Shown here piece by piece: positions 8,341 through 32,256 of a stretch of DNA of 61,148 nt. The position numbers were made by a program, and so were the translations under genes. Positions within the stretch are counted from its first letter, which is position 1; the number at the start of each line of letters is the position of its first letter. The stretch spans positions 1 to 61,148 of the IMG/VR virus record IMGVR_UViG_3300037408_000144; one strand, written 5' to 3'. Source of the stretch: a virus (lineage: Duplodnaviria; Caudoviricetes). Under the pieces are notes generated by a model. It was not told where the DNA came from. It ran no database searches and saw only the letters and a list, made by a program, of their open reading frames with translations.

Positions 8341-9771
8341 ATGACCCTAGACGAGTACTACCAACTGCTCTCCGCTGGGCAGCAGTACGTGCGGAATGCA
8401 CAGGCCGCCGACCCCGAGTGGCAGGAGTGGCAGCGTATCGCGGACACGTACACGCCCGACATGGGCGGTGCTCCGGCGTCCCCCACGACGGACTACTGGG
8501 GCAAGTACATGGCGACGCTGTCGCCCCAGCAGCAGGCTGAGTTCGCCCAGACGATGGCGCAGTTGAAGGATGACCGCTGGCAGACCTCGGTCGGCAACGT
8601 CATGCAGTACATCCCCGCCGCCGTGGGGGCAGTGGGCTTGGCTGGGATGGGTGGGTTGCTCGGCCCCAGTGCGGGTTTCCCTGGTACGTCGATCTTTGCC
8701 GGTCTTGGTGAAGCAGGTGCTGCTGCGGGCGCGGCGGAAGCCGCCACTGGCGCAGGGTTCGTCGGAGAGGGGGCGCTATCTGGGGTGCCTCTGTGGGATG
8801 GGGCGCTTGCTGGTGCTGGTGCGGCGGGGGCGGGTAGCTCTCTTCTCACTGGTGCCGGCAAAGCCCTAGCCGGCGCGGCGAGTTCCGTGCTCACGGGTGG
8901 GTCCGGTGGGTCCGGCGGCTCTGCCTTCCGCAACACGCTGACCGGCGAAGTCACCGGCGACCAGGAGAACCTGAACTCGCAGATGTACAAGGCGATGGGC
9001 GACCAGCTTGCCTTCAACCGCGAGCAGTTCGACTACTACAAGGGCCTGTCGGATCGTCAGTACCAGCTCGGACAGAACGTGTTCGACTGGAACCAGCAGA
9101 TGGCCAACGACGCCAAGGCACGGGCGGACAGGTTCGACAACCTGTACTTCGACACGACCGGCCGGCAGCTCCGCCAGTTCAGCGCTGATGTCGACAAGTA
9201 TGACTCCCCCGCGGAGGGGCTGCGCATGTCGGGCCGGGCGATGGCGGACGTCGAGGGTCAGCTCGACAACGCTCGCGGCGCACAGATCCGTGGGCTGACC
9301 TCGCGCGGGTGGAACCCGAACGCCGCAGCGCTGCAGTCGTCGATGGGCGACATGGAGCTGCAAGGGGCCCTGGCCAAGGCCAGCGCGTCCACGATGGCTT
9401 TCGAGGCGGCGAAGCGCGAGGGGCTGAACCTGCGTGCGATGGCGGCGGGCCTGGGCCAACCGAACGCCAACGTGGCGACCGCCAACACAGGACTCTCGGG
9501 CCAGCTGAGTTCGTCGGGATTGGATTCGTCCGTGAAGTCCATGCAGCCGGGTTTCACCAACCTCGGCCTGTACAACCAGGGCCAGGGCGTCGGCGTCAAC
9601 TGGGGCAATGCTGCCAACAGCGGTTACAACGCCATGCGCACCGGCAACAGCAGCTGGTCGGACAACCTGAACTACGGTGGCGCGCTGCTTGGCGGGCTGC
9701 GCGGGTATGCCACTGGCGGAACGTGGGGTGGTCTGGCCGGGGCTATCGGCGGTCTTACGGGGTGGGGTTGA
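8341..9771 (+). CDS. Internal virion / DNA ejection protein
   Basis: Gly/Ala/Gln-rich, coiled-coil-like; first of three genes of increasing size, as in podoviral ejectosomes. Confidence 0.7.
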   Translation: MTLDEYYQLLSAGQQYVRNAQAADPEWQEWQRIADTYTPDMGGAPASPTTDYWGKYMATLSPQQQAEFAQTMAQLKDDRWQTSVGNVMQYIPAAVGAVGLAGMGGLLGPSAGFPGTSIFAGLGEAGAAAGAAEAATGAGFVGEGALSGVPLWDGALAGAGAAGAGSSLLTGAGKALAGAASSVLTGGSGGSGGSAFRNTLTGEVTGDQENLNSQMYKAMGDQLAFNREQFDYYKGLSDRQYQLGQNVFDWNQQMANDAKARADRFDNLYFDTTGRQLRQFSADVDKYDSPAEGLRMSGRAMADVEGQLDNARGAQIRGLTSRGWNPNAAALQSSMGDMELQGALAKASASTMAFEAAKREGLNLRAMAAGLGQPNANVATANTGLSGQLSSSGLDSSVKSMQPGFTNLGLYNQGQGVGVNWGNAANSGYNAMRTGNSSWSDNLNYGGALLGGLRGYATGGTWGGLAGAIGGLTGWG

Positions 9772-11116: not shown

Positions 11117-14100
11117 GTGCTCGACATCCAGAAGCTACGGGAACTTGGCGGGGGCCTGAGCAACCTCACGGACGAGCAGATTGCGCGTTCCGCACACGAG
11201 GCGTACAGGGGCTACTACCCGGACTTCAACGACTTCGCCAAGCGGATCGGCTACGCGCCGGAGGACGACTTCGTCCGCGGGCTGAAGATGGGCGGCCGGC
11301 AGACCCTGGCTGCTGGTGCTGGTGCCCTGGCGATGGGCGCAGACGCCATCGGTGCCACGGGTGCGCGCGACTACATGCTTGACGCAGCCCGCAACCAGTC
11401 CAACAAGGCGTTCCAGCTCAGTCGTCGGTCGGACGACGTCGACAACTTCCGCGAAGACCCGCTGTCGTTCCTGAGCGCCGGGGCGGGCCAGGTGGCCGCG
11501 TTCGCCATCCCGTCCCTGGTGTCTGGCGGCCTGGGTGCCGGCGTTGCGGCTGCGCGTGGAGGCAGCATGCTGCTCGGTGCCGCTGCGGGTTCCTACGGCG
11601 CGAACTTCGCCCAGGAGGCGGGCGGCATCTACAACGAGCTGGCGGATCAGGGTCGCTACGAGCCGGGCCGCGCGGCGGCATACGGCGCAGGTGCTGCTGT
11701 TCTGGACACTGCGACCGAGGCGATTCCGTTCGCCCGGGGGGCGTTTCGCGGCGGCCTGCCGACCCGCATGCTCAAGGGTGCCGCGCTTCAGGCTCCGATC
11801 GAGGCAGGTACCGAGACGATCCAGACGGGCATCGAGCGCGCGGGCGCCTACAAGGATCTGAACAGCGACGAGGCGTGGAGCGATTACCGCAACGCTGCGG
11901 CACTGGGTGCCATCGGCGGCGCGGGCTTCGGCGGCGCCACTGGGGCGTTCTCCCGGGCTCCCGTGGACCTGCTGCGCAACACGAACCCGCAGGTCGAGCC
12001 TCCCGCACCTGAAGCGCCCCCCGCGCCCCCCGCCCCGCTGGGCCTGCAGTGGAACCAGCGCTACGAGCCTGACGGCGGCTTCTTCGGGCAGCAGAACCCG
12101 TTCGTGGTGTTCCCCGACGGCTCGACCGCGACGCAGTCCGACGCCGAGCTGATGCAGCGCTACGAGATGACCCCCGACACGCTGGGCGGTCTGCGCCAGG
12201 GCGGGGTGCGCGTCGATCCGTCGATGGACACGGGCAACGTCGCTCCGTATCTGCCGGGCAAGATGGTCGCCGACCAGGGCGGCCAGGTGGCACTCGACGC
12301 CCCCGCTGCGGACTCGCTGTACGGTCGGGATGACGGTGACATGGGGCTCGTCGTGGCGCGCGAGCGCTACCTGGCCCAGAAGCAGGCGGCAGAGCAGGCC
12401 GCGGCCCAGAAGGAGGCCATCGCTGCCGAGGCCGCGAAGCGCGAGCAGCTGGCTGCGCGCACCCTGGATGCCACGGGGGTCAAGGGCACGACCGCTGTCG
12501 ACTTGTTCGGCCAGCTGGAAGACCTGAAGAACCGGGGTGCGATCGACGAGACGGATTTCATCAGCGCCGCGGCGCTGATCTCCGTGCGCGAGAACGGCAA
12601 GGTACGCAAGGTCATCGCTCAGGCCCAGGCCAAGCTGGCGCAAGCCACCCCCACTGCGGCACCCGTGCAGGCCCCGGCCGCACCCACTGTACCCGCGGAG
12701 GCGCCGCCGGCCGTGCTGGCCCAGGAGCAGACCCCCGCCCTGCCGGACGCGGTTGCCCGGCGGCGCATGTCCACCGAGCAGCTGGCGCCCCACGTCACCG
12801 AGATCCTGGCTCGCATGGGGGTCGATCCGGCCAAACCCGTGGAGGTCAAGCGCAAGAAGGTCAAGACCACCATCACTGCGCAGCAGCTCGTCACCGACAT
12901 GCTTCGCGCCGACGACATCGACGTCGCCGCGGTCGAGGGTGCCACAGGCATCGACTTCACCAGTGGTAGTGTGCGTGAGCCGTTGACCCTGGATCAGACC
13001 GCCCTGCTGGTGGCCAAGCGCACCGGCAAGAAGATGACCAAGCAGTCCATCCAGGCGCGGCTGGCCAAGTACGGCGTGGACAAGGACACCGCCAGCCTGA
13101 TCGGCTACGCATCGGTGGAACCCGTGGCCCCGGCCGAACTGGGTGTGCAGGGCGGCAGCGTCGTCGAAGGTGAGGAGAGCCCGGCCTTCGGTGCCGGCAT
13201 GCGCGTGGAGAACTCGGCCTCCGACGCAGCTGCGTCGGGTGTACTCGAAGACGGCCGGTCTACCGAGGATCCGAAGATCGCTGCGGCGCTCCTGGCGCTG
13301 GCACGCAAGGCGGAGTCCGCCGCCGAAGGGTGGGTGGGTGCCGACCAGGCCAACATGACCAAGGAGCGGGCCGACGCAGCCGCCGTGGCGGACTTCGATG
13401 CCGACCCCACTGCCGGCGAAGATCCGATCTTCGTGGAAAAGCGCAAGGCTGCGGCACTGGCGCGTGCCCAACTGGCGAATAAGCGAGACGAGGTAACCCG
13501 CGCCGCGCGCTGGGAAGAAGCCACGGGCAGCAGGTGGCTGCCTGGCACCGTGCAGTGGGAACTGCGCCGTGCGCTGGACTCCGGGAACATCGTCGAGGGC
13601 GACATCGCCGAGGCCCGCGACTCCTACAATGAAGACCTGCGGGGCGACGATCCGACGTGGGACGACCTCACCCCCGAAGAACAGGCTGACTGGGTCGGCA
13701 CTAACCTGAAGGACGCAGATGGACGAATCACTGCCCAAGAGTACGCCCGAGAGTGGGGCGCCCTCGTCGACCGCGCCCGCCAGCGATTCCAAGGCGCCAA
13801 TCAGCCCCGAGCACTTGGCGGACCTGAAGCTACTGAAAGCGTTCAACCTGTCGCCCCAGCAGTACAAGCGAGCGATGATCGAGCTGCACAAAAAGCACCG
13901 CGGACCTTCCGCGTAGAGAAGCCCGGTGCGGGCAAGCTGAAGGCAGTGCGGCCCAGCACGGTCCCGGGGGAGCCGGAAGATACCAGGCTGTCCACGTTCA
14001 GCGCCGTCAAGACGATGCCCGGTGCATCGCACGCACTGGACACGATGGGCAAGTTCGGTATCGCGCATGTGGTGGACTGGGTGGACACGTGGTTCACCAC

Positions 14101-17100
14101 GAACCCCCGACACAACGGCGACGGTGGCACGTATTACGCGATCGGCGACAAGCAGGTCGTCGAGTGGCGCCCGACAGCCGACCCAACCAAGTACGGCAAC
14201 GCGCTGGTAGACTTCGTGCACGAGGTCGGGCATGCTGTGGACATGGCGTCCTACGGCGGCGGGGTGTACTCCACCCAGCCTGAGCTGGCGTTCCGCTGGC
14301 AGGGCGAGCCTGTGGCTGCGGGTTCCGTGGCGCGCGAGCTGGCGACCATCTACATGTTCCAGCCGGAGAGCCCGCTGGCCGCGCTGTTCGAGTACCCGCT
14401 GGACCCGGAGAAGCACGGCGGTACCATCAAGACTGCGGCCCGCGCGTCCCAGGAAGTGTTCGCCAACCTGCTGGCCGCGTACCATCATCCGGCACTGCAG
14501 CGCGAGCTGAAGAAGAACGCTCCACTGGCGACCAAGTTCATCGAGGAGGTCATCCGTGACATCGGTCAAACAACCCGTGAAAAAGCCCACAGCCTCGAAG
14601 CTGCTCAACGACGCCGTGCCGCCTTCCAAGGCCGTGCCGATGGCGCCGCTCAAGCGCAGCAACAACCCGGCACCCAGCCCCGAGTTCCAGGACTGGCTCA
14701 ACCAAGGGCTGAATCAGGAAATCGAGCTGCCCAAGGCCCGCTGAAGTCCAAGAACGCGAACCTCGACAGCAAGGCCCTGAGCGAGCTGGAGCTGCCGGGT
14801 AAGGTCAAGGGCGTCAAGGGGTTCATCGAGGGCGTCTTCAAGGACGGCCTGTGGCGTGCCCACCCCAGCCTGCTGGGCTGGCTGTCGGCCGAGCAGCTTG
14901 GCGCACGGTTCAAGACTCTGCCGGGTGTACGCCAGTTCGCGGAACTGACGGCCCGCATGTCGGGCCGGGCGAACCAGATCATGCACGCCGCCGACGTGAT
15001 CAAGCGGCGCTGGGAAGCCTTGGCCGAACCCGACGCGCAGGCCCTGGGCGATCTGCTGCTGGACAGCACTGGCGCCAGCATGTGGCCGAACCTGGACTTC
15101 CGTGACGAGAAGAACCTGCACATCGAGGACACGCCGGAGAACCGGGCGCAGCACGCCAAGCTGAAGGAGCGCTTCCGCACCGCCAAGCCGGCCGTCAAGC
15201 AGCTGTACCTGGACGTCGTGGCGGACTTCGAGACGCGCCGCCAGGCCAAGATCGAGGGCGTGCGCAGGGGTATCGTCGCCACTTACTACCCGGACGAGAC
15301 CTCGGACACCAAGGGGCTGTCGCGCCAGGAGGTCGATCGCATCGCCGACGCCAAGGGCAAGGCCCGCGACGAACTGGTGCAGTCCCTGGGCACCACGGTG
15401 CGCCGCCAGCGCGAGATCAAGAGCCTGGTCAGCGACCTGACCCAGCATGCCGACACGTTCCGCACCAACCCAGGGCCGTACTTCCCGCTGATGCGCTTCG
15501 GCAACAACGTGGTGTCGGTGAAGTCCAAGGCGTACGTCACGGCCGAGCAGGAACTGGTCTCTGCCCAGAAGGCCCTGGCCGCAGCCGAGAACGACTCTGC
15601 CGCCGGCACCGACCTAAAGGCCGAGCGCGACGAGGTCAAGCGGGCCACCACGGTGCTGAACAAGATGAAGCGCAGTGGCAACGACTACCGGGTCGAGTTC
15701 TTCGAGACCTACGGCGAAGCGCGCCAGTTCAAGGAGCAGGCGGACGCCAAGTTGGGTGCCGGCTACGAGGTCAACCAGTCCGTCAAGGACCAGTACCTGA
15801 AGTCGGTGGACGCCACCAGCCCGACGTTCATGAAGCGCATCGAGCAGAAGCTCGGCCAATACTTCCAGGGCGAGAAGGGCGAGCCGATCAAGCAGGCCGT
15901 GCGTGAGATGTACGTGCAGATGCTGCCCGAGAACAGCATGCTGAAGTCGCAGCTGAAGCGGCAGAACGTGCTGGGTGCCAGCCGGGACGCCATGCGGTCC
16001 TACGCTGCCAGCTCGGTGCGCGACGCGCACGGCATCAGCCGCCTGGAGTACCAGGCCCCGCTGCGCGAGGCACTGGACACGCTGCGTTTCGACCGCAAGG
16101 AGATCGACGCCAAGATCGTGGGCCAGGAACTGGCCGCACGGCTGCAGCAGAACTTCGAGTTCAAGGACCACCCGCTGCTGGGCGCAATGGGCAACATGAC
16201 GTACCTGACGCGCCTGGGCCTGTCCCCGTCGTTCCTGGTGACGCAGCTGACGCAGCCCTGGTTCATCTCGGCCCCGATCCTGGCCAGCCGGCACCACATG
16301 AAGTCCTTCGGCGCGCTGCGCGAGGCGACAGCCGCTGCCGGCAAGATGCTCCACGCCGACGCCAAGAAGCAGGGCACCGCGCACTTCAGTCTGGACCCCG
16401 ACCGCGCCCTGAAGGCCGGACAGATCACCCAGGACGAGTCCCTGATGCTCAAGGACATGCTCGACCGGGGCCGCATCGACATCACGATCACCCAGGACCT
16501 GGGCGCCACGGCGCAGGGGCGCGACGACTCCTGGCTGACCAAGGCCACCCGGATCAGCGCACTGCCGGCGCAGCAGCTGGAGGTCATGAACCGCGTGGCG
16601 ACGGCACTGGCAGCCTACCGGCTGCAGAAGCAGCTGGAACTCAGCCGCGGTGTGGACAACCCCGTGGCGCTGGAGCGCGCGGCGAAGTACGCCGACGAGA
16701 TCGTCTCGGAGACGCACCTGAACTACGCGGCGGAGAACCGGGCGCGGCACATGCACCCGAACACCTGGGGCGGCTGGGGCCGCATCATGTGGCAGTTCCG
16801 CAGCTACCAGCAGGGCATGATCTACCTGGTCATGAAGAACATGATCGACGCCATGCGCGGCGACAAGGAAGCGCGCCGGGCCTCGGCCTGGCTGGCGGGC
16901 ATGATGATGGCCTCCGCGGGCACCACGGGCCTGCCTGGGGCCGCTGTGGTCGGCACGACGATCAAGCTGATCTACGACGCGTTCAAGGAAGAAGACGACG
17001 AGCGCGACCTGCGCCAGATGATGTACGCCGGCCTGGAAGCCGCCGTGGGCAAGACGGTGGCCGACGCCCTGGTCAAGGGCCTGCCTGCTGCTGCCGGGGT

Positions 17101-17734
17101 GGACATCTCTGGCCGTGTGGGCCTGGGCAACATCTTCTCGCCGGCACCGTACGCGGACGACCGGGCCGAGGGCAGGGACATGGTGGCTGCGTACTGGCTT
17201 GCGGCCGGTGGCGCGGCGATGGGCGTGGCGGCTGACTGGGCCGAGGCCATGAAGCTGGCTGACGAGGGCAAGTACGCCCAGGCCGCGCAGCGTGCGCTGC
17301 CGAAGGTCGTGTCGGATCAGATCCGCTGGGCCCGCGAGAGCGTGGAGGGCCGCACGGACACGCGGGGACGCGTGCTGGTACCGGCCGAAGAACGGGGGTT
17401 GGGGGATGCCCTGACTCGGGCGATGGGGTTCTCGACCACCGATGATGCCCGCATGGGCGAACGCCGGGCGGCGTTCTTCGACGCGCGTGAGAAGCGCGAT
17501 TCGGTGCGTCAGAGTCTGCTGACGAAATTCGCCAGGGCCCGGATCGGGGGTGAACCCGTCACCGAGATCCTGGACGAAATCGCCGCGTTCAACGGGCGTC
17601 ATCCCGACGCCAAGATCACCCCGGCGAACCGGGAGGCTGCGGTACGCAGCACCCGCAGCCGCGCGAAGGAGATGCGCGGCGGGGTGCCGGTACGGGAACG
17701 CGATCAGGAGTTGGCGGAAGACTTCGGGATCTGA
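11117..17734 (+). CDS. PLxRFG-domain large polyvalent internal virion protein with HExxH zincin motif
   Basis: 2205 aa; YFPLMRFG; FVHEVGHAVD (HEVGH at 14219-14233). Confidence 0.85.
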   Translation: MLDIQKLRELGGGLSNLTDEQIARSAHEAYRGYYPDFNDFAKRIGYAPEDDFVRGLKMGGRQTLAAGAGALAMGADAIGATGARDYMLDAARNQSNKAFQLSRRSDDVDNFREDPLSFLSAGAGQVAAFAIPSLVSGGLGAGVAAARGGSMLLGAAAGSYGANFAQEAGGIYNELADQGRYEPGRAAAYGAGAAVLDTATEAIPFARGAFRGGLPTRMLKGAALQAPIEAGTETIQTGIERAGAYKDLNSDEAWSDYRNAAALGAIGGAGFGGATGAFSRAPVDLLRNTNPQVEPPAPEAPPAPPAPLGLQWNQRYEPDGGFFGQQNPFVVFPDGSTATQSDAELMQRYEMTPDTLGGLRQGGVRVDPSMDTGNVAPYLPGKMVADQGGQVALDAPAADSLYGRDDGDMGLVVARERYLAQKQAAEQAAAQKEAIAAEAAKREQLAARTLDATGVKGTTAVDLFGQLEDLKNRGAIDETDFISAAALISVRENGKVRKVIAQAQAKLAQATPTAAPVQAPAAPTVPAEAPPAVLAQEQTPALPDAVARRRMSTEQLAPHVTEILARMGVDPAKPVEVKRKKVKTTITAQQLVTDMLRADDIDVAAVEGATGIDFTSGSVREPLTLDQTALLVAKRTGKKMTKQSIQARLAKYGVDKDTASLIGYASVEPVAPAELGVQGGSVVEGEESPAFGAGMRVENSASDAAASGVLEDGRSTEDPKIAAALLALARKAESAAEGWVGADQANMTKERADAAAVADFDADPTAGEDPIFVEKRKAAALARAQLANKRDEVTRAARWEEATGSRWLPGTVQWELRRALDSGNIVEGDIAEARDSYNEDLRGDDPTWDDLTPEEQADWVGTNLKDADGRITAQEYAREWGALVDRARQRFQGANQPRALGGPEATESVQPVAPAVQASDDRAAQKAPRTFRVEKPGAGKLKAVRPSTVPGEPEDTRLSTFSAVKTMPGASHALDTMGKFGIAHVVDWVDTWFTTNPRHNGDGGTYYAIGDKQVVEWRPTADPTKYGNALVDFVHEVGHAVDMASYGGGVYSTQPELAFRWQGEPVAAGSVARELATIYMFQPESPLAALFEYPLDPEKHGGTIKTAARASQEVFANLLAAYHHPALQRELKKNAPLATKFIEEVIRDIGQTTREKAHSLEAAQRRRAAFQGRADGAAQAQQQPGTQPRVPGLAQPRAESGNRAAQGPLKSKNANLDSKALSELELPGKVKGVKGFIEGVFKDGLWRAHPSLLGWLSAEQLGARFKTLPGVRQFAELTARMSGRANQIMHAADVIKRRWEALAEPDAQALGDLLLDSTGASMWPNLDFRDEKNLHIEDTPENRAQHAKLKERFRTAKPAVKQLYLDVVADFETRRQAKIEGVRRGIVATYYPDETSDTKGLSRQEVDRIADAKGKARDELVQSLGTTVRRQREIKSLVSDLTQHADTFRTNPGPYFPLMRFGNNVVSVKSKAYVTAEQELVSAQKALAAAENDSAAGTDLKAERDEVKRATTVLNKMKRSGNDYRVEFFETYGEARQFKEQADAKLGAGYEVNQSVKDQYLKSVDATSPTFMKRIEQKLGQYFQGEKGEPIKQAVREMYVQMLPENSMLKSQLKRQNVLGASRDAMRSYAASSVRDAHGISRLEYQAPLREALDTLRFDRKEIDAKIVGQELAARLQQNFEFKDHPLLGAMGNMTYLTRLGLSPSFLVTQLTQPWFISAPILASRHHMKSFGALREATAAAGKMLHADAKKQGTAHFSLDPDRALKAGQITQDESLMLKDMLDRGRIDITITQDLGATAQGRDDSWLTKATRISALPAQQLEVMNRVATALAAYRLQKQLELSRGVDNPVALERAAKYADEIVSETHLNYAAENRARHMHPNTWGGWGRIMWQFRSYQQGMIYLVMKNMIDAMRGDKEARRASAWLAGMMMASAGTTGLPGAAVVGTTIKLIYDAFKEEDDERDLRQMMYAGLEAAVGKTVADALVKGLPAAAGVDISGRVGLGNIFSPAPYADDRAEGRDMVAAYWLAAGGAAMGVAADWAEAMKLADEGKYAQAAQRALPKVVSDQIRWARESVEGRTDTRGRVLVPAEERGLGDALTRAMGFSTTDDARMGERRAAFFDAREKRDSVRQSLLTKFARARIGGEPVTEILDEIAAFNGRHPDAKITPANREAAVRSTRSRAKEMRGGVPVRERDQELAEDFGI
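13719..13916 (+). CDS. Nested +1-frame small protein (65 aa) inside the PLxRFG gene
   Basis: GAAGGA SD 5 nt before ATG; G/C-ending codons switch to this frame while the host frame turns A/T-ending. Confidence 0.6.
   Translation: MDESLPKSTPESGAPSSTAPASDSKAPISPEHLADLKLLKAFNLSPQQYKRAMIELHKKHRGPSA
14556..14744 (+). CDS. Nested +1-frame small protein (62 aa) inside the PLxRFG gene
   Basis: GAGGAGGT SD 5 nt before GTG; same codon-bias switch. Confidence 0.6.
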   Translation: MTSVKQPVKKPTASKLLNDAVPPSKAVPMAPLKRSNNPAPSPEFQDWLNQGLNQEIELPKAR

Positions 17735-20700
17735 TCCTCGACGACGGCGTCTGGTTGCCGAAGCACCCGGACGTTGTCTCCCAAAGCCCTGGTGTAGTCC
17801 ACGTCGCGGCCCAGTCGGGCCACGATGACTTTCATGGCGGACACGCGAAGGTTCTGCGCCATCTTGGTGTTGCGGTACAGGTCGATGGCGTGCGCCAGGC
17901 GGGACGGGCGGTCAAGCTCGGGCGGCTCCAGGATGTTCATGTCCCGGCAGGCGTTGAGCAGTGTGTGGTGGCTGACCTTGCGTCTGTGGCACCAGTCCCG
18001 CAGGGCGTCGGACTTGAAGTAGATGCACCCCTCGTCCAGTACGCTGCGCGCCAGCACGTTCTCTGGCACCCGGTCGTTCAGCGGTACGTCGACCGGGGTG
18101 TTCTTGCCGGGCATCTTCATGCTGCGGGTGATCAGCGTGCTGCCCGCGATGTCGCTCAGGAACAGGGCCATCTGCGCATCCGGTTCCGTCGGGACGATGC
18201 CCTCGACCGCGAACTCGTAGCTGGCGTCGTGCCAGCGCTTGAACTCCCTGACCAGTTCGTCGAGGTTGAAGAACTTCAGGCCCCACGGCTTGAGCAGGCG
18301 GCGCATCAGCAGCAGCGCACCCAGGGCACGCCACATGAATCGGCCGTCCTGGCCCCCGTCGAGCATGGCGCGGGCCTTGTCCGCGCACTCGATGCCGGCC
18401 TTGTTCAGCATCTCACCACCCTGCCGGCACATCTCGTAGTGCAGGACGGCACCCAGGGCGCCGGCACAGTCCGCCAGGGCACTGCGCGCCTCGGTCTCCT
18501 GCAGCGAACGCTCCCGGCTGACTGCCGTGACGCCGGAACACTCGATCTCAAGCAGCCGGAACTGAACTGCCATCGACTCGCTGCGGTCCACTGCGGCGAT
18601 CTCGCGGTGCGACTTGTTCGTCGACATCACGTTGATGAGCGTCATCTTCTCGCCGCCCGTGACCGACAGGTCCTTCTTCAGCCGGGTCTTCGACACGCCG
18701 TTGCCGATCGCGCTGATCAGACTTGCCAGTTCCGCAGGGGGCACGTCCTCCATCTCGTCCATGAACGAGGGCATGGTGCCGGCCTGCAGTGCCAGTTCGC
18801 CACGGGCGTTGCCGGTGCTGTTGTTGCGGTCCAGCTGCGACACGATGTTGTTCGGCACGCCGTAGGCCAGGGCGGCTGCGGCCATCGCCGAGGTCTTGCC
18901 GATACCCGACTTCGGACTGAACAACGACACCGTGAGCCCCATGCCGGGGAGTTCCGAGCCGGGGTAGTAGCTGCCCTGGACGAACGTGAGCAGCGGGCTG
19001 GAGATGGCCAGCGAGATGGCCAGCTGGTACGGCAGGAAGTTCGAGTCCGAGTAGAACTCGTTCAGGTAGTCCACGTGCCTGCGGGCCCGCGGCAGAATGT
19101 GCTCCTGCCAGACCTCGGGGCCCCAGCGCCCGCTGGCGTTGTGGGGTAGCGGCACTGTGTAGGCCGTGCCGCGCGAGCGCAGTTTCTCCTGCACGACGCC
19201 CTCGTAGACGTCGCCGGTTCGGGTGATCAGGTGCGGTCCCTGGGCTACCGTCAACTCACCCTTCTGGTTGTAGAACGATCCGAAGCGGGCCATGATCTTC
19301 GGCCGCTGGCCTGCGGCCCTGATCCGCTCCATCGACGCGCGGATGTACTGTTCCATCGAGTTGTATGTGCGTGTGGTTGCGGGGAAGACCTGGACGTTCT
19401 GTCCTGCGAGGTGGGCGATGAAGTCCTGCCGCTTGGCCAGCAGTCGGGTCGGCAGCGTGTAGCGCGTCGCCTTCTTCTGCGCGTTGTCGTAGACCGTGTA
19501 CACGGACATCGCCTGGTCGTTCTCGCTGGTCCCGGGGGCCCAGGATTCGAGCCAGTACGGCTGCGGACAGAACTGCTCCTTGGTGCTGATGACGGACTCT
19601 TCCCCCGTGGGGGTCTTGATCGGGATCTGCACCTCGGCCGTCAGGACGTAGTCTCCGTTCCCGCTCTTGATGATGTGGAACCCGTGGGGCAGGTAGCCAT
19701 CCCAGGGCATCGGGGCGGCATGTGTGGCTGGTGCGGCCAGTTCTTCCCCCTCGTCGCTGAACGGCATGTACGAATCGGCCGCGGCCTCGGGCTGCTCGAC
19801 GGTGAGTGCTGGCTGCTGCGCCGTCATCTCCTGGATCGACAGCATGCCCAGCTGGATGGGGGACTTGATGGTCCCGCGGTGCGCGCAGCCGGAACAGGCC
19901 GACGGGTTCTCCGCCTCGAACGTGGCGCACGTGGTGGGCCCAGCGGTCCAGCGGTCGAGCTTTGACTGGGTGACGTCGTAGTCGTACTCCGGGTGCCCCT
20001 GGCTGTAGGTGTGTGCCGCATCGGAGCCTTCCTGCGTGAACTTGATCACGCCCAGCATCGCTCGCCAGTACGGCTCGGCGACGTCCCCGCGCAGACCCAT
20101 CGCGTGCTGCATGGCGGCGCAGTTCTGCCGGATCTTCTCCGCGCTCTTGGGCGGACCCACCGGGGCCTCCAGCACCTCGGCGTTCAGGCTGCGCTTGCGT
20201 GCAGGTGCCTCTTGAGGCACAAAGGCAGCCACTCGGGCTGCCATGTCGTTCAGGTTGTACTTCGCACCAGACCGTGTCAGGACGGCCACTCTGGCGCCAC
20301 TGCTGTGCAGCGTGCCCGGGGGCCTGAGCACCCGTGCCGCGTCCGATGTGACTGTGGGGTCGATGCGCAGCCCCTGCGCCAGCGCCATCGCCTTGAGGGC
20401 CTTGGCCAGCGGCAACCACTGGGCCAGCTCGACGTCGGCGTCGAGACAGAAGTACACGTGCAGCCCCGCGCCGCTGGAGACAACGTAGCTGGGCTTGAGA
20501 CTGTTGGCCTGCACCCACTGCGCCACAGCCAGGAGGGCTTCGCGCTGCGTCGGGTACACGGCGTCGCCGTGCTTGGCGAATTTCTCCTCCCCGGCGTCGA
20601 TGTCGAACGCCAGCGAGCGACGGAAGGCCACGTTGTCCCCCGTGCGGGCGGCACTGGTCTGGAATGACGCGGTGGCGAAGTAGATGCCCTGGGAATCCTC

Positions 20701-20826
20701 ACGCTCCTGCGTACCCGCATCGAGTGCATCCAGGCTGTCGAACCAGACGTGGCGCTTCTGCGTAGCCACGAACAGGCAGTACCGTCCCTGAGACGGCAGA
20801 ACGTCTTGGTAGAACTGCAGGGGCAC
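17704..20826 (-). CDS. Primase-helicase (primase N-terminus, Cys cluster, DUF927-like P-loop helicase)
   Basis: FDIDAG, VSSGAGLHVY, DAARVLRPPGT, CSGCAHRG, Walker A SPKSGIGKT, Walker B FMDE. Confidence 0.85.
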   Translation of the reverse strand: MPLQFYQDVLPSQGRYCLFVATQKRHVWFDSLDALDAGTQEREDSQGIYFATASFQTSAARTGDNVAFRRSLAFDIDAGEEKFAKHGDAVYPTQREALLAVAQWVQANSLKPSYVVSSGAGLHVYFCLDADVELAQWLPLAKALKAMALAQGLRIDPTVTSDAARVLRPPGTLHSSGARVAVLTRSGAKYNLNDMAARVAAFVPQEAPARKRSLNAEVLEAPVGPPKSAEKIRQNCAAMQHAMGLRGDVAEPYWRAMLGVIKFTQEGSDAAHTYSQGHPEYDYDVTQSKLDRWTAGPTTCATFEAENPSACSGCAHRGTIKSPIQLGMLSIQEMTAQQPALTVEQPEAAADSYMPFSDEGEELAAPATHAAPMPWDGYLPHGFHIIKSGNGDYVLTAEVQIPIKTPTGEESVISTKEQFCPQPYWLESWAPGTSENDQAMSVYTVYDNAQKKATRYTLPTRLLAKRQDFIAHLAGQNVQVFPATTRTYNSMEQYIRASMERIRAAGQRPKIMARFGSFYNQKGELTVAQGPHLITRTGDVYEGVVQEKLRSRGTAYTVPLPHNASGRWGPEVWQEHILPRARRHVDYLNEFYSDSNFLPYQLAISLAISSPLLTFVQGSYYPGSELPGMGLTVSLFSPKSGIGKTSAMAAAALAYGVPNNIVSQLDRNNSTGNARGELALQAGTMPSFMDEMEDVPPAELASLISAIGNGVSKTRLKKDLSVTGGEKMTLINVMSTNKSHREIAAVDRSESMAVQFRLLEIECSGVTAVSRERSLQETEARSALADCAGALGAVLHYEMCRQGGEMLNKAGIECADKARAMLDGGQDGRFMWRALGALLLMRRLLKPWGLKFFNLDELVREFKRWHDASYEFAVEGIVPTEPDAQMALFLSDIAGSTLITRSMKMPGKNTPVDVPLNDRVPENVLARSVLDEGCIYFKSDALRDWCHRRKVSHHTLLNACRDMNILEPPELDRPSRLAHAIDLYRNTKMAQNLRVSAMKVIVARLGRDVDYTRALGDNVRVLRQPDAVVEDQIPKSSANS

Positions 20827-29270: not shown

Positions 29271-32114
29271 TTATTTCGCGTCGCCGTAGCAGCCGGCGAA
29301 CGAACCTTCTGACCAGAGGACGATCTGAGGCCACCACGACGGCGGGGTGCGCATGATGCGCTGCAGTTCAGCCAGCAGGGGCTCGGCCTCTGACTGCGGG
29401 AACATGTAGACCAGTTCGTCGTGCAGCCGCATGACCGGACGCAGCCCAGTGGACTTGAAGAACCGCAAGGCACACTCGAACACGCTGTCGCGGGCTAGGG
29501 CTTGGACGATGTTCTCGTCGACCTTCGGGCCTGTCAGGAACGCCCTGTGCCGCCCTTCGGCGTACACCCAGGACATCTTGGCCCGGCCGTCCTCCCACTT
29601 CTCACCCGTGTCCATGAACCGCAGGTTCGGGTACCGGATCTTGCGCCCGCTGGGAAGCTGCAGTCCCTCGGCACAGGTGGTGACCAAACCCCACGGGTCG
29701 ATCTCGCGCTTGACGTTGCGCACCACGTCGTGCAGGGCAGCTCCGCAGGTCTTCCAGCCGTCAACGATTTCGGCGTAGCGAGTGCGCCAGCGCTCCACAC
29801 CGTCCTGGGACTCCTCGTTCGACAGAGTGATGCCGCCCATCGTGCGCGCCACTCGAATGAACGTCTTCCACCCGGAGCCGAACCCCAGGCCCAACTGGCA
29901 GTTGGAAACTAGCCGGTCACTGACAGTGAAACGATGTCGGGGTCCGGCGTTGAGAAGGTCCCATACACGCCTTTCGGCTTGTCGCTGGGGCGGACCCAGC
30001 GGGCTACTATCTGTTCGTCGGTCATCCCCATAGACAGCAGATTGCGCAGCGTGTTGTCCGCGTACCGGACCTCCGGGTAATTCTGGCGGAACATGTGGAA
30101 CCGCTTCACATTCGACCCCCGGCGATTGGCCATGTTCTGAGCCCGCGTCACCCACCGAAGGTTGCCCGGCGAATACCCGCTGTTGTTGTCCTTCCGGTCC
30201 AGCTCCTTGCTTCGTTCCAGTCCCAGGTTCTGCATAACCCATACTGCCGCCGCCGCTACGGACTCGAACTCGAACGTCACGCCCCGGCCACCGTACAGCG
30301 GATACGCTATGTCGTTCGGGTTCGTGCAGCGCTGTCGCGCTGCCTCCAAGCGCTTCAACAGCCACGTCGGGGCACCGCACTTCTGGCTGCAAGATTGGCA
30401 TGCGCGCGACTTCCCCGATCGCAAGCTGTCGTAGCTCACTGCACGCACTGTCGCGCACCCGGTGCACCGCACTGTGACGTACCGATACCCCTTGACGCGT
30501 GTCCATTGCCTCGACACCAGCTCCGCCAAACCCCAGCGGTGCCCCACCGGCTCCGGTGCGAGCGAGCCGGAGTGATTGCGAGGCTGCATCCCGCAGAAGA
30601 ACCTTCCGTCCGTCCTCGACCCAGACTTCGTGGTCTGGGGTCGCTGTGAGTCCGTCATACGTAACCACCTCCCTGACACCGTTGAAGATCGGGCCGTCGT
30701 GGTGAACCCACTCGATCCCGTCCCAAACTAAATCTAACACACTAACGGTTTCTATCGGTTTGGGACCGGAATCTGTCAACACCAACTCCCCCTCAGCGAT
30801 GCACACTTTGGCAAACTGGCGCTCCGGCTTGACGATCTCGTCGGGGGCCTTGTCGTAGTAGAACGCGGCGAAGTCCTTGTACAGGTCCGCCTTCGGGTCT
30901 TGCGCGTACAGCGCCATCGTGGACGGCACCTTCCACAGGGTGTGGTTGACCCGCAGCTCGATGCCGGACTGGTCGGCCACGCCGACCACGTAGCCCTTCG
31001 GGGCACGTAGACTCTTGCGCAGGGCGTCGCTGATCTTCGGCCGATCGGGGTCCACCCGGGGGAGGTTCTGCGGGTTGTACAGCCAGCCGCTGTCGCGTCC
31101 CGTGGTGTCGGCACCGCAGTATTTCAGGGGCACCGGCAGGAACCCGTTCAGCTTGGCCTGGGTCTGCAGGAACGCCTCGATGCGCGTCTCCAGCAGGGTG
31201 GACTTCACCGCCAGGCGGGTGCGGGCCGCCGCGGCTACGATCGGGTCGTCGTGCTCCTGCAGGGCCTGGAACTCCTCGTCGGTCTTGGCCAGGGCCGGCA
31301 CCCGGTTCTCCGGGTTGGTGGGCGAGGGTTTCATGGGCACCTCGACGCCGCGCTGCGTCAGCAGGGCGGAGAACTTCGGCGCGGACGCCAGTTGCTCGCG
31401 AACCCACTCGGCGATGCCTTCCTCACCCTGCTCCCAGAAGTCCTCCACGTCGGGCTGCAGCATCTTGGCCAGGTCCAGCAGGGCGCGGTGCTTGTTGGAC
31501 CGCTCGACCGACGCCGTCGTCTCCAGCAGCCCCGTGTCGATGGTGAACTTGGGCTCCACCAGCATGCGGATGTTGCAGTCCAGGTGCCACAGTTCCTCGG
31601 CCTTGAAATGCGGGGCCAGCTTGTAGAACAGGGCCGCGCACTGCTCGGTGTCCTCCCGGTTGTACTTCTCCATCGCGGCCAGTTCCTCGGGTGTGAACTC
31701 CTCCAGCCGCCGCCCCTTGGTGTTGATGAGTGCTGCCTGATCCTTGACGCCCAGCTCGTAGTGCGCCACCAGCTTGCCCAGGCCCAGGCCGACGTCCTTG
31801 GCGTGCAGAACCCGCGCCATTGCCAGCGTGCAGCCCCACATCTTGGGCTTGATGCCCAGGCGCCACGCCGAGATCATGGCGTCAAATTCGGAGTTGTTGT
31901 GGGCTACCAACAGACTGTCCGACCAGTCCAGGGCGTGCAGGTGCCGGCGGATCTCGGCTTCTCCGAAGAAGACGTCAGTCGGTGCGCCACCCACTTTCAC
32001 TGCGCACGAGATCAGCTGTGTGTCCGGATGCAGGACGTACTCGATCGGGGACATCTTGCTCAGGGAGTGAGTCGGGGACCAAAAGGTCTCGTAGTCCAGG
32101 AATACTGTCCGCAC
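29271..32114 (-). CDS. Family A DNA polymerase precursor with intein (947 aa; ~646 aa spliced)
   Basis: Exonuclease LDYET/AHN..FD; TTGRDSG..NPQNLP; motif A ADQSGIELR; motif B RQFAKV|CQLGLGFG split by the insert; motif C LHDELV; GTG start at 32114 inferred. Confidence 0.9.
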   Translation of the reverse strand: MRTVFLDYETFWSPTHSLSKMSPIEYVLHPDTQLISCAVKVGGAPTDVFFGEAEIRRHLHALDWSDSLLVAHNNSEFDAMISAWRLGIKPKMWGCTLAMARVLHAKDVGLGLGKLVAHYELGVKDQAALINTKGRRLEEFTPEELAAMEKYNREDTEQCAALFYKLAPHFKAEELWHLDCNIRMLVEPKFTIDTGLLETTASVERSNKHRALLDLAKMLQPDVEDFWEQGEEGIAEWVREQLASAPKFSALLTQRGVEVPMKPSPTNPENRVPALAKTDEEFQALQEHDDPIVAAAARTRLAVKSTLLETRIEAFLQTQAKLNGFLPVPLKYCGADTTGRDSGWLYNPQNLPRVDPDRPKISDALRKSLRAPKGYVVGVADQSGIELRVNHTLWKVPSTMALYAQDPKADLYKDFAAFYYDKAPDEIVKPERQFAKVCIAEGELVLTDSGPKPIETVSVLDLVWDGIEWVHHDGPIFNGVREVVTYDGLTATPDHEVWVEDGRKVLLRDAASQSLRLARTGAGGAPLGFGGAGVEAMDTRQGVSVRHSAVHRVRDSACSELRQLAIGEVARMPILQPEVRCPDVAVEALGGSATALHEPERHSVSAVRWPGRDVRVRVRSGGGSMGYAEPGTGTKQGAGPEGQQQRVFAGQPSVGDAGSEHGQSPGVECEAVPHVPPELPGGPVRGQHAAQSAVYGDDRRTDSSPLGPPQRQAERRVWDLLNAGPRHRFTVSDRLVSNCQLGLGFGSGWKTFIRVARTMGGITLSNEESQDGVERWRTRYAEIVDGWKTCGAALHDVVRNVKREIDPWGLVTTCAEGLQLPSGRKIRYPNLRFMDTGEKWEDGRAKMSWVYAEGRHRAFLTGPKVDENIVQALARDSVFECALRFFKSTGLRPVMRLHDELVYMFPQSEAEPLLAELQRIMRTPPSWWPQIVLWSEGSFAGCYGDAK
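29901..30803 (-). mobile_element. Intein (301 aa) in polymerase motif B
   Basis: Block A CIAEGELVLTDSG; block B TATPDH; blocks F/G VWDLLNAGPRHRFTVSDRLVSN followed by Cys+1. Confidence 0.92.
29909..30658 (-). CDS. HNH-type homing endonuclease (249 aa) nested in the +1 frame of the intein
   Basis: GGAGGT SD 8 nt before ATG; RCTGC..CQSC; RQRCTNPN..YPLYGGRG; LDRKDNNSGYSPGNLRWVTRAQNMANR. Confidence 0.88.
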   Translation of the reverse strand: MTDSQRPQTTKSGSRTDGRFFCGMQPRNHSGSLAPEPVGHRWGLAELVSRQWTRVKGYRYVTVRCTGCATVRAVSYDSLRSGKSRACQSCSQKCGAPTWLLKRLEAARQRCTNPNDIAYPLYGGRGVTFEFESVAAAAVWVMQNLGLERSKELDRKDNNSGYSPGNLRWVTRAQNMANRRGSNVKRFHMFRQNYPEVRYADNTLRNLLSMGMTDEQIVARWVRPSDKPKGVYGTFSTPDPDIVSLSVTG

Positions 32115-32256
32115 GTCGGTATCTTTCGATGATGGTTTGGATGGTGCCGAACGTGGCACCACATGAATCGCACTTGTGCCTGCGACGCATGACCCCGGAG
32201 ACCGGGGTGCGCGATGACGTCACGTGGGTGTGCGCGTTGCAGCTTGGGCAGCGCAT
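31975..32256 (-). CDS. NrdR-N-like zinc ribbon protein
   Basis: MRCPSC..T.V.SSR..RRRHKCDSCG.TF.T; AAGGA SD; 3' part overlaps pol. Confidence 0.65.
   Translation of the reverse strand: MRCPSCNAHTHVTSSRTPVSGVMRRRHKCDSCGATFGTIQTIIERYRRADSIPGLRDLLVPDSLPEQDVPDRVRPASGHTADLVRSESGWRTD

Follow-up and report, generated by a model that had tools for sequence, protein, structure and literature searches.

Short phage genes that lie wholly inside a larger gene and are read in its +1 frame include Rz1 inside Rz of lambda and E inside D of phiX174. Here we describe a stretch of similar layout, positions 14556-14744 of a virus record of 61,148 bases with a GC content of ∼ 64% (the window, analysed at its full length), where a 62-residue +1 open reading frame (ORF), denoted P0002, lies inside a 2205-residue host ORF (11117-17734, + strand) for a giant phage polyvalent protein of the DarB-like/PLxRFG type. 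P0002 shares with Rz1 and E its small size, its complete enclosure in a larger gene, the +1 frame, a start of its own and the phage setting; it differs in lying in the linker of a giant polyvalent protein and in having no homologues. An Rz1-type spanin or lysis protein was considered and rejected, since P0002 lacks a Cys (hence a lipobox) and a membrane segment. We interpret 14556-14744 as an overlapping gene, specific to this lineage and with initiation of its own, the product of which may bind the peptidase domain encoded just upstream, a tentative reading to which we give a probability of about 0.4.

A homing endonuclease encoded out of frame has been described in a cyanobacterial dnaX intein, and the preprint reports that synonymous change in the host frame drops across the overlap (bioRxiv 10.64898/2026.09.14.751524). 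The likeness lies in a host frame that reads a low-confidence disordered stretch and an overlapping frame that encodes a folded protein; the difference is that the nested protein of the intein is recognizable and under purifying selection, whereas P0002 is an orphan. Viral genes that arose de novo by overprinting have been detected through their codon usage, the frame that resembles the genome being taken as the older one (PMC3744397). The two frames of our stretch likewise contrast in codon usage, but here it is the small ORF that is genome-like and the long host frame that is not, the reverse of a young ORF overprinting an old gene.

For the host protein the closest description is that of Iyer et al. 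(PMC5512222), who found zincin-like metallopeptidase (MPTase) domains in polyvalent proteins and proposed autoproteolytic processing. The peptidase domain considered here resembles those MPTase domains in its mid-protein position between linkers, in an HExxH motif followed three residues on by Asp, as in their phage-type clade, and in a possible lethal-factor-type zincin fold, towards which their profile search and, with weak matches, our fold search lean. Nested genes are not described for MPTase domains in the part of that paper at hand, and the nested ORF has no part in this likeness, which is confined to the host domain.

Putative start site and codon usage of the nested +1 ORF

The nested ORF (+ strand) runs from a GTG at 14556-14558 to a TGA at 14742-14744 and would encode a basic, proline-rich peptide (pI 9.9, 10 Pro, no Cys). 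A Shine-Dalgarno (SD)-like sequence, GAGGAGGT (14543-14550, + strand), lies 5 nt before the GTG, with CATCC (14551-14555) as spacer. The HExxH domain of the host protein ends at 14554, so the nested ORF follows it directly; in this, and in every part of the start site, the sequence agrees with the preliminary description. An overlapping gene should carry initiation signals of its own, and GAGGAGGT-N5-GTG supplies them. The identical arrangement begins a real gene of 1040 aa (17704-20826, - strand). Only 20 sites in the window, counting both strands, combine a six-nucleotide SD core with a start codon 3-9 nt downstream, and start codons make up 2.6% of the +1 triplets inside genes.

The host frame has a G + C content at third codon positions (GC3) of 0.44 over 14556-14744, the +1 frame 0.83 and the +2 frame 0.62, compared with 0.85, 0.70 and 0.48, respectively, over the whole gene. 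The shift in bias sets in no more than a few codons from the GTG and lasts as far as the +1 stop, directly past which (14745-14834) host GC3 is 0.97. Typical codons in the +1 frame, A/T-ending codons in the host linker and a return of normal bias at the nested stop had all been noticed before, and the measurements bear them out. From 15 long ORFs we took 2018 windows, each 62 codons long, and scored them (patch, twin patch and polymerase insert, see below, included): a host-frame synonymous-codon score as low as that of the patch occurs in 0.9% of them, a +1 score as high in 0.5%. When all six frames are compared, sense +1 is the best in the patch, with a synonymous score of -0.95 and a codon log-odds of +0.27 (true-gene windows, 0.45 ± 0.18). 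Sense +1 is also the best of six in the twin patch, and in both patches it falls inside the true-gene range.

An antisense gene was rejected as an explanation, the antisense frames scoring below sense +1. A long antisense 'shadow' ORF (11135-14701, - strand, 1188 aa) does lie opposite the giant gene and ends at a TCA codon of the linker (14711-14713); its openness results from the rarity of TTA, CTA and TCA codons, which the host avoids.

A hydrophilic linker yields part of such a signal without any selection on a second frame. Its Gln, Ala, Arg, Pro, Gly and Glu codons begin with G or C, which raises +1 GC3. A +1 stop requires T at position 2 of a host codon, by the logic of the sequence, and linkers with few Phe, Leu, Ile, Met or Val residues seldom offer it; the openness of the +1 frame is thus not significant in itself, and 18-29% of simulations with the host residues kept stay open. 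We therefore judged the patch against simulations (5000 per model) that keep the host residues. With typical codons, 0/5000 reach the observed +1 score and 0/5000 have a host-frame score as low. Forcing host GC3 to 0.44 (Model C) gives p-values of 0.002 (synonymous score) and 0.0004 (log-odds), +1 stops appearing in 71% of the sequences; with the third-base composition of the patch itself (Model D) the log-odds p-value is 0.0012 and +1 stops appear in 82%. Conversely, recoding a fixed +1 peptide with typical codons brings the host-frame score to -1.65 ± 0.05, against an observed -1.72, and in 26% of these sequences the host frame is free of stops. GC3 is 0.87 in other linkers of low complexity in this protein (aa 285-315, 425-470 and 500-560). 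Host amino-acid composition alone thus does not give the +1 bias; together with the GC3 of the other linkers, the simulations suggest that the DNA looks written for the +1 frame. Codon usage in that frame is coding-like beyond what the host imposes, weakly so under strict permutation (see below), and the observation is real and statistically unusual. The ORF, its initiation signals and its codon statistics are plain features of the DNA.

No RNA element accounts for 14556-14744: there is no Rfam match over the stretch and the RNA fold z-score is +0.87. No promoter-like sites were found, and terminator-like sites occur at chance level. Reads from four DNA sequencing runs, compared at 80% likeness, gave short pieces only, with no real cover of the stretch and no usable variants.

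A second patch and a nested HNH gene in the same window

Scanning the whole host ORF revealed one other patch of comparable strength, at 13727-13936. It holds a +1 ORF (13719-13916, + strand; P0009 is its stop-to-stop peptide) of 65 aa from an ATG that AAGGA precedes by 5 nt. The +1 bias peaks over 13785-13913, and host GC3 falls to 0.27-0.37 in 90-nt windows. The twin patch lies on the other side of the HExxH domain, so that the two patches flank it. The twin ORF ends 99 nt upstream of the codon for Met967, the point where the close relative P0003 begins, and the gene boundary may therefore vary here. The two +1 peptides are unrelated to each other or to anything else in the window.

A +1 ORF is also nested in the DNA polymerase A ORF (29271-32162, - strand), which carries an insert with ∼ 256 codons of low-GC3 filler rich in Arg, Gly, Ala and Pro. 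A 256-aa +1 ORF with its own SD and ATG (30658) is nested there (29909-30679, - strand) and matches the HNH endonucleases of phrog_374 (E 6.7e-24). The polymerase frame remains open across it, for which the chance is ∼ 0.4%, as estimated from a +2-frame stop density of ∼ 1 per 47 codons. Since this case is confirmed by homology, true +1 nesting in a tolerant host stretch does occur in this phage. Its layout is that of the cyanobacterial intein with the nested homing endonuclease. By eye the ends of the polymerase insert resemble what we take to be intein splicing blocks; no Pfam intein model matched the insert at E ≤ 0.01.

The HExxH domain and a predicted complex

The C-terminal part of the host protein (2205 aa, taken from the ORF list and its translation) fits the DarB-like/PLxRFG family profile: it matches PHROG 10089 'DarB-like antirestriction' (E 7.8e-51, aa 1253-2189) and Pfam LPD39 (E 2.6e-13, aa 1247-1372), and PLMRFG occurs at aa 1457. 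A tblastn search with the host ORF returned 37 phage records (roughly 60-kb phages) whose labels include DarB-like and PLxRFG, among others. The other member of the 90% cluster of the host protein (P0001) is identical in 2204 of 2205 residues, the first residue alone being different.

Upstream of the patch lies the HExxH domain, a putative zincin-like metallopeptidase (13982-14554, + strand; aa 956-1146), with HEVGHAVD at 14219-14242 (aa 1035). Distant relatives have it in common, tblastn matching it at 11 of 38 relatives' loci. AlphaFold 2 predicts it with block-mean predicted local distance difference test (pLDDT) values of mostly 70-95, the lowest blocks being 56 and 61. The best fold matches are weak and are to M34 zincins (lethal factor, PPEP; E 2.8e-3, probability 1.00, template modelling score 0.32), and no Pfam peptidase model matched the host ORF at E ≤ 0.01. 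In the host frame the patch (14555-14743, + strand; aa 1147-1209) reads as a predicted helix followed by a disordered linker of Gln, Ala, Arg, Pro and Gly with A/T-ending codons. The helix (∼ aa 1160-1180, residues 205-225 of the model) has a pLDDT of ∼ 70-76, after which values drop below 50.

The preliminary description had suggested that the nested ORF might encode an inhibitor or chaperone of the preceding domain. We predicted the complex of the domain (aa 956-1146, with a 7-row alignment) with the 62-aa peptide; it scored 0.75, against 0.00 for the best control, and passed a mark that is reached by 58 of 80 solved complexes and by 2 of 110 mismatched pairs. Agreement between the runs is at least 62% of contacts, with a partner pLDDT of at least 53. 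In the model the C-terminal part of the peptide (residues 34-60) docks in the peptidase cleft, against residues 47-52, 70-81 (among them the His and Glu of HExxH), 131-138 and 168-174 of the domain. Such a prediction supports, but is no proof of, binding of the peptide to the domain.

Relatives and alternative explanations

Several results weigh against an overlapping gene. The SD-like GAGGAGGT consists of the host Glu-Glu-Val codons that close the conserved domain, and Glu-Glu-Val is present in P0003 too; the motif is a by-product forced by these conserved host codons. P0002 has no match among 1.84 billion representatives, no match or lead in Pfam, PHROGs or the atlas, and a best E of 0.23 by tblastn over 38 relatives' loci. 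The modelled domain was cut just before the predicted host-frame helix (∼ aa 1160-1180), and since the helix was cut off, the groove it vacated may attract an amphipathic peptide. In the strictest control, where synonymous codons are permuted among identical residues, the patch gives p = 0.29 and 0.039. Further points of this kind come from P0003 and from two high-GC distant relatives, as follows.

P0003 (1252 aa, 75% identical) is the sole close relative in protein collections and is available as a protein only. It reads the linker in the host frame, with 49% identity across the whole patch and 57% in its first 42 residues, and has no match to the +1 peptide; since it shares the host-frame reading, that arrangement predates the P0003 split. 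The highest +1 identity attainable in P0003 is 0.68-0.69 (61 columns), equal to background: ordinary windows with comparable host identity reach 0.64 (n = 6 windows) and 0.77 (n = 49). There is no enrichment of replacements at host position 1, most of which leave the +1 residue unchanged (position 1:position 2 = 11:8 in the patch versus 91:65 elsewhere). In P0003 the docking segment, in the C-terminal part of the +1 peptide, is necessarily different at many positions, and two indels fall in this part of the alignment. At the start codon host Arg is replaced by Tyr: TAT would give ATG (two changes) and TAC would give ACG (three changes), the present genome using 28 TAT and 284 TAC.

Attempts to find DNA of close relatives were unsuccessful: blastn against phages and plasmids gave none, protein-guided scans of viral contigs with the window protein and P0003 gave none, a scan of genome contigs gave none, and a degenerate pattern for a conserved peptide had no match in the genome or viral contigs. 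Nor was an upstream gene of P0003 found, either with host aa 560-966 among shorter proteins or with the twin +1 peptide among longer proteins. The earlier idea of a translated overlapping gene is partly supported, by the codon statistics, the initiation site, the nested HNH precedent and, for an inhibitor or chaperone, the predicted complex; conservation of the +1 frame was not seen where it could be tested.

An overlapping gene is not the only reading of these data. The +1 frame could instead be left over from a frame change or a fusion of genes, a fossil without translation of its own that was once the in-frame C-terminal tail of a separate HExxH protein, or an in-frame linker. An indel near 14556 would have let ribosomes pass the old stop, TGA 14742, in another frame and enter the downstream part. 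Such a relic would explain why the DNA resembles pure +1 coding and the host frame looks non-coding (recoding of the +1 peptide, above) and why the signal ends at the +1 stop. It also fits the missing +1 conservation, and docking on the domain is what one would expect of its former covalent tail, too. The position of the twin patch just upstream of Met967, where P0003 starts, agrees with variable gene boundaries, and by the codon-usage criterion of PMC3744397 the genome-like +1 frame would be the older one. P0003, however, already shares the host reading, yet codon usage has not decayed to that of the host frame: at residues identical in P0003, host codons end in G or C at 14 of 32 positions in the patch versus 783 of 876 elsewhere (binomial 3e-10). 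This difference suggests a continuing force that holds A/T at host third positions, which are the second positions of +1 codons. The relatives found by a metagenome scan (38 loci, all 25-35% identical) already have a single ORF across domain, linker and C-terminal part, and only coincidence would have placed a strong SD and a start codon right at the switch. Hidden Markov model (HMM) tests gave no significant match of either frame to the motifs of these relatives. We regard a relic as possible but doubtful.

In the distant relatives the variable linker downstream of the HExxH domain gives way to a strongly conserved motif of the form Q-G-[LTV]-I-x-R-N-I-x-K-L-P-K and then Q-x-P-V-R. An HMM was built from 20 segments of distant relatives (including L001, L004, L012, L013, L016, L021, L030 and L031). 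The motif is not detectable in any frame of the window; the C-terminus of the +1 peptide, which had looked alike by eye, ranked ∼ 27th of 1524 six-frame peptides (E ∼ 25) and was dismissed as a chance likeness. With an HMM of the host-frame helix (three relatives) the host ORF was absent among the matches listed, down to E ∼ 5.5.

The distant relatives also bear on the proposal that the patch is a composition artefact, in which disordered hydrophilic linkers have A/T-rich (especially A-rich) third positions unrelated to any second frame. Relaxed or pause-favouring codon choice and strand bias are the causes offered; codons starting with G or C would then produce the high +1 GC3 and the lack of +1 stops. 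Hydrophilic linkers are indeed open in +1, with runs of 54-102 aa at the linker position in all nine distinct relatives, and linker GC3 lies below the gene mean in eight of the nine, the dips being milder. Two high-GC relatives (L015 and L018, GC 0.63, contigs of ∼ 59 kb) have similar low-GC3 linker patches, with host GC3 in the range 0.34-0.50: in L015 (7623-7817) the +1 ORF has 64 aa and a log-odds of 0.02, and in L018 (8328-8480) 50 aa, GAGGAG 7 nt before an ATG and a gene-like log-odds of 0.39. The patches, equally low in GC3, lie in other linkers, and these +1 ORFs are statistically weak and not clearly coding-like (Model D p = 0.08-0.28), with non-significant Pfam/PHROG matches only (E ∼ 0.13-0.15). 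A Gly/Ala-rich low-complexity stretch of another gene of the window (8560-8950, + strand, in 8341-9771) has a GC3 of 0.68; GGT and GCT codons are frequent in it, and no alternative coding frame stands out. The strict-permutation values for the patch point the same way. Against composition stand the GC3 of 0.87 in other linkers of the same protein and the simulations with fixed residues and low GC3, which stay below the observed +1 score (p = 0.0004-0.002) and mostly contain +1 stops. The twin patch, moreover, passes the strict permutation (p = 0.0004 and 0.0006), and a chance peptide would rarely pass the complex test. We consider a pure artefact of composition unlikely.

Selection on the +1 frame without independent initiation could also arise from a programmed +1 frameshift near 14550-14556 in a fraction of passes. 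The product would be a truncated isoform consisting of the N-terminal part, the peptidase and a 62-aa tail ending at TGA 14744, and the two patches would give two nested isoforms. In the prfB +1 frameshift an SD-like element lies just upstream of the shift site, which holds a 0-frame stop or hungry codon. At our junction, inspected by eye, there is no shift-prone codon, 0-frame stop or rare codon, and no host stop occurs anywhere in 11117-17731. There is also no structured RNA, and a start codon belonging to the +1 frame stands at the proper spacing. A frameshift is therefore very improbable.

For an independently initiated overlapping gene, translation, binding and function of the small protein are what we infer from the features above, and the following model would accommodate them. 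The stretch 14556-14744 would be dual-coding: the polyvalent protein would be read through in the host frame as a helix and then a disordered linker, and the 62-aa basic, proline-rich protein would be started at GTG 14556 from GAGGAGGT in the +1 frame. Because the host linker tolerates almost any hydrophilic sequence, the DNA could have been shaped mainly by the small protein, which would leave genome-typical +1 codons and A/T-ending host codons up to the +1 stop. Its C-terminal amphipathic segment (residues 34-60) may sit in the substrate cleft of the zincin-like domain and restrain or chaperone it in trans.

A broader proposal is that the phage systematically hides small +1 genes in tolerant linkers: besides the HNH gene, the orphans at 13719-13916 and 14556-14744 would flank a processing peptidase of an ejected protein and act on it in trans, for example as a cleft-occupying inhibitor that times autoprocessing. 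We find this distinctly unlikely; if it were true, a regulator would be encoded inside the gene that it regulates.

Should the peptide prove real, the linkers of giant phage 'polyvalent' proteins would hold small functional genes that gene callers overlook, and P0002 would be a candidate regulator within the regulated protein and a handle on the control of injected peptidase domains. If the patch is a relic, it records the assembly of giant multi-domain phage genes by frameshift fusion. Either way, codon bias confined to one frame can point out dual-coding stretches in high-GC phages, a signal that linker composition seriously confounds.

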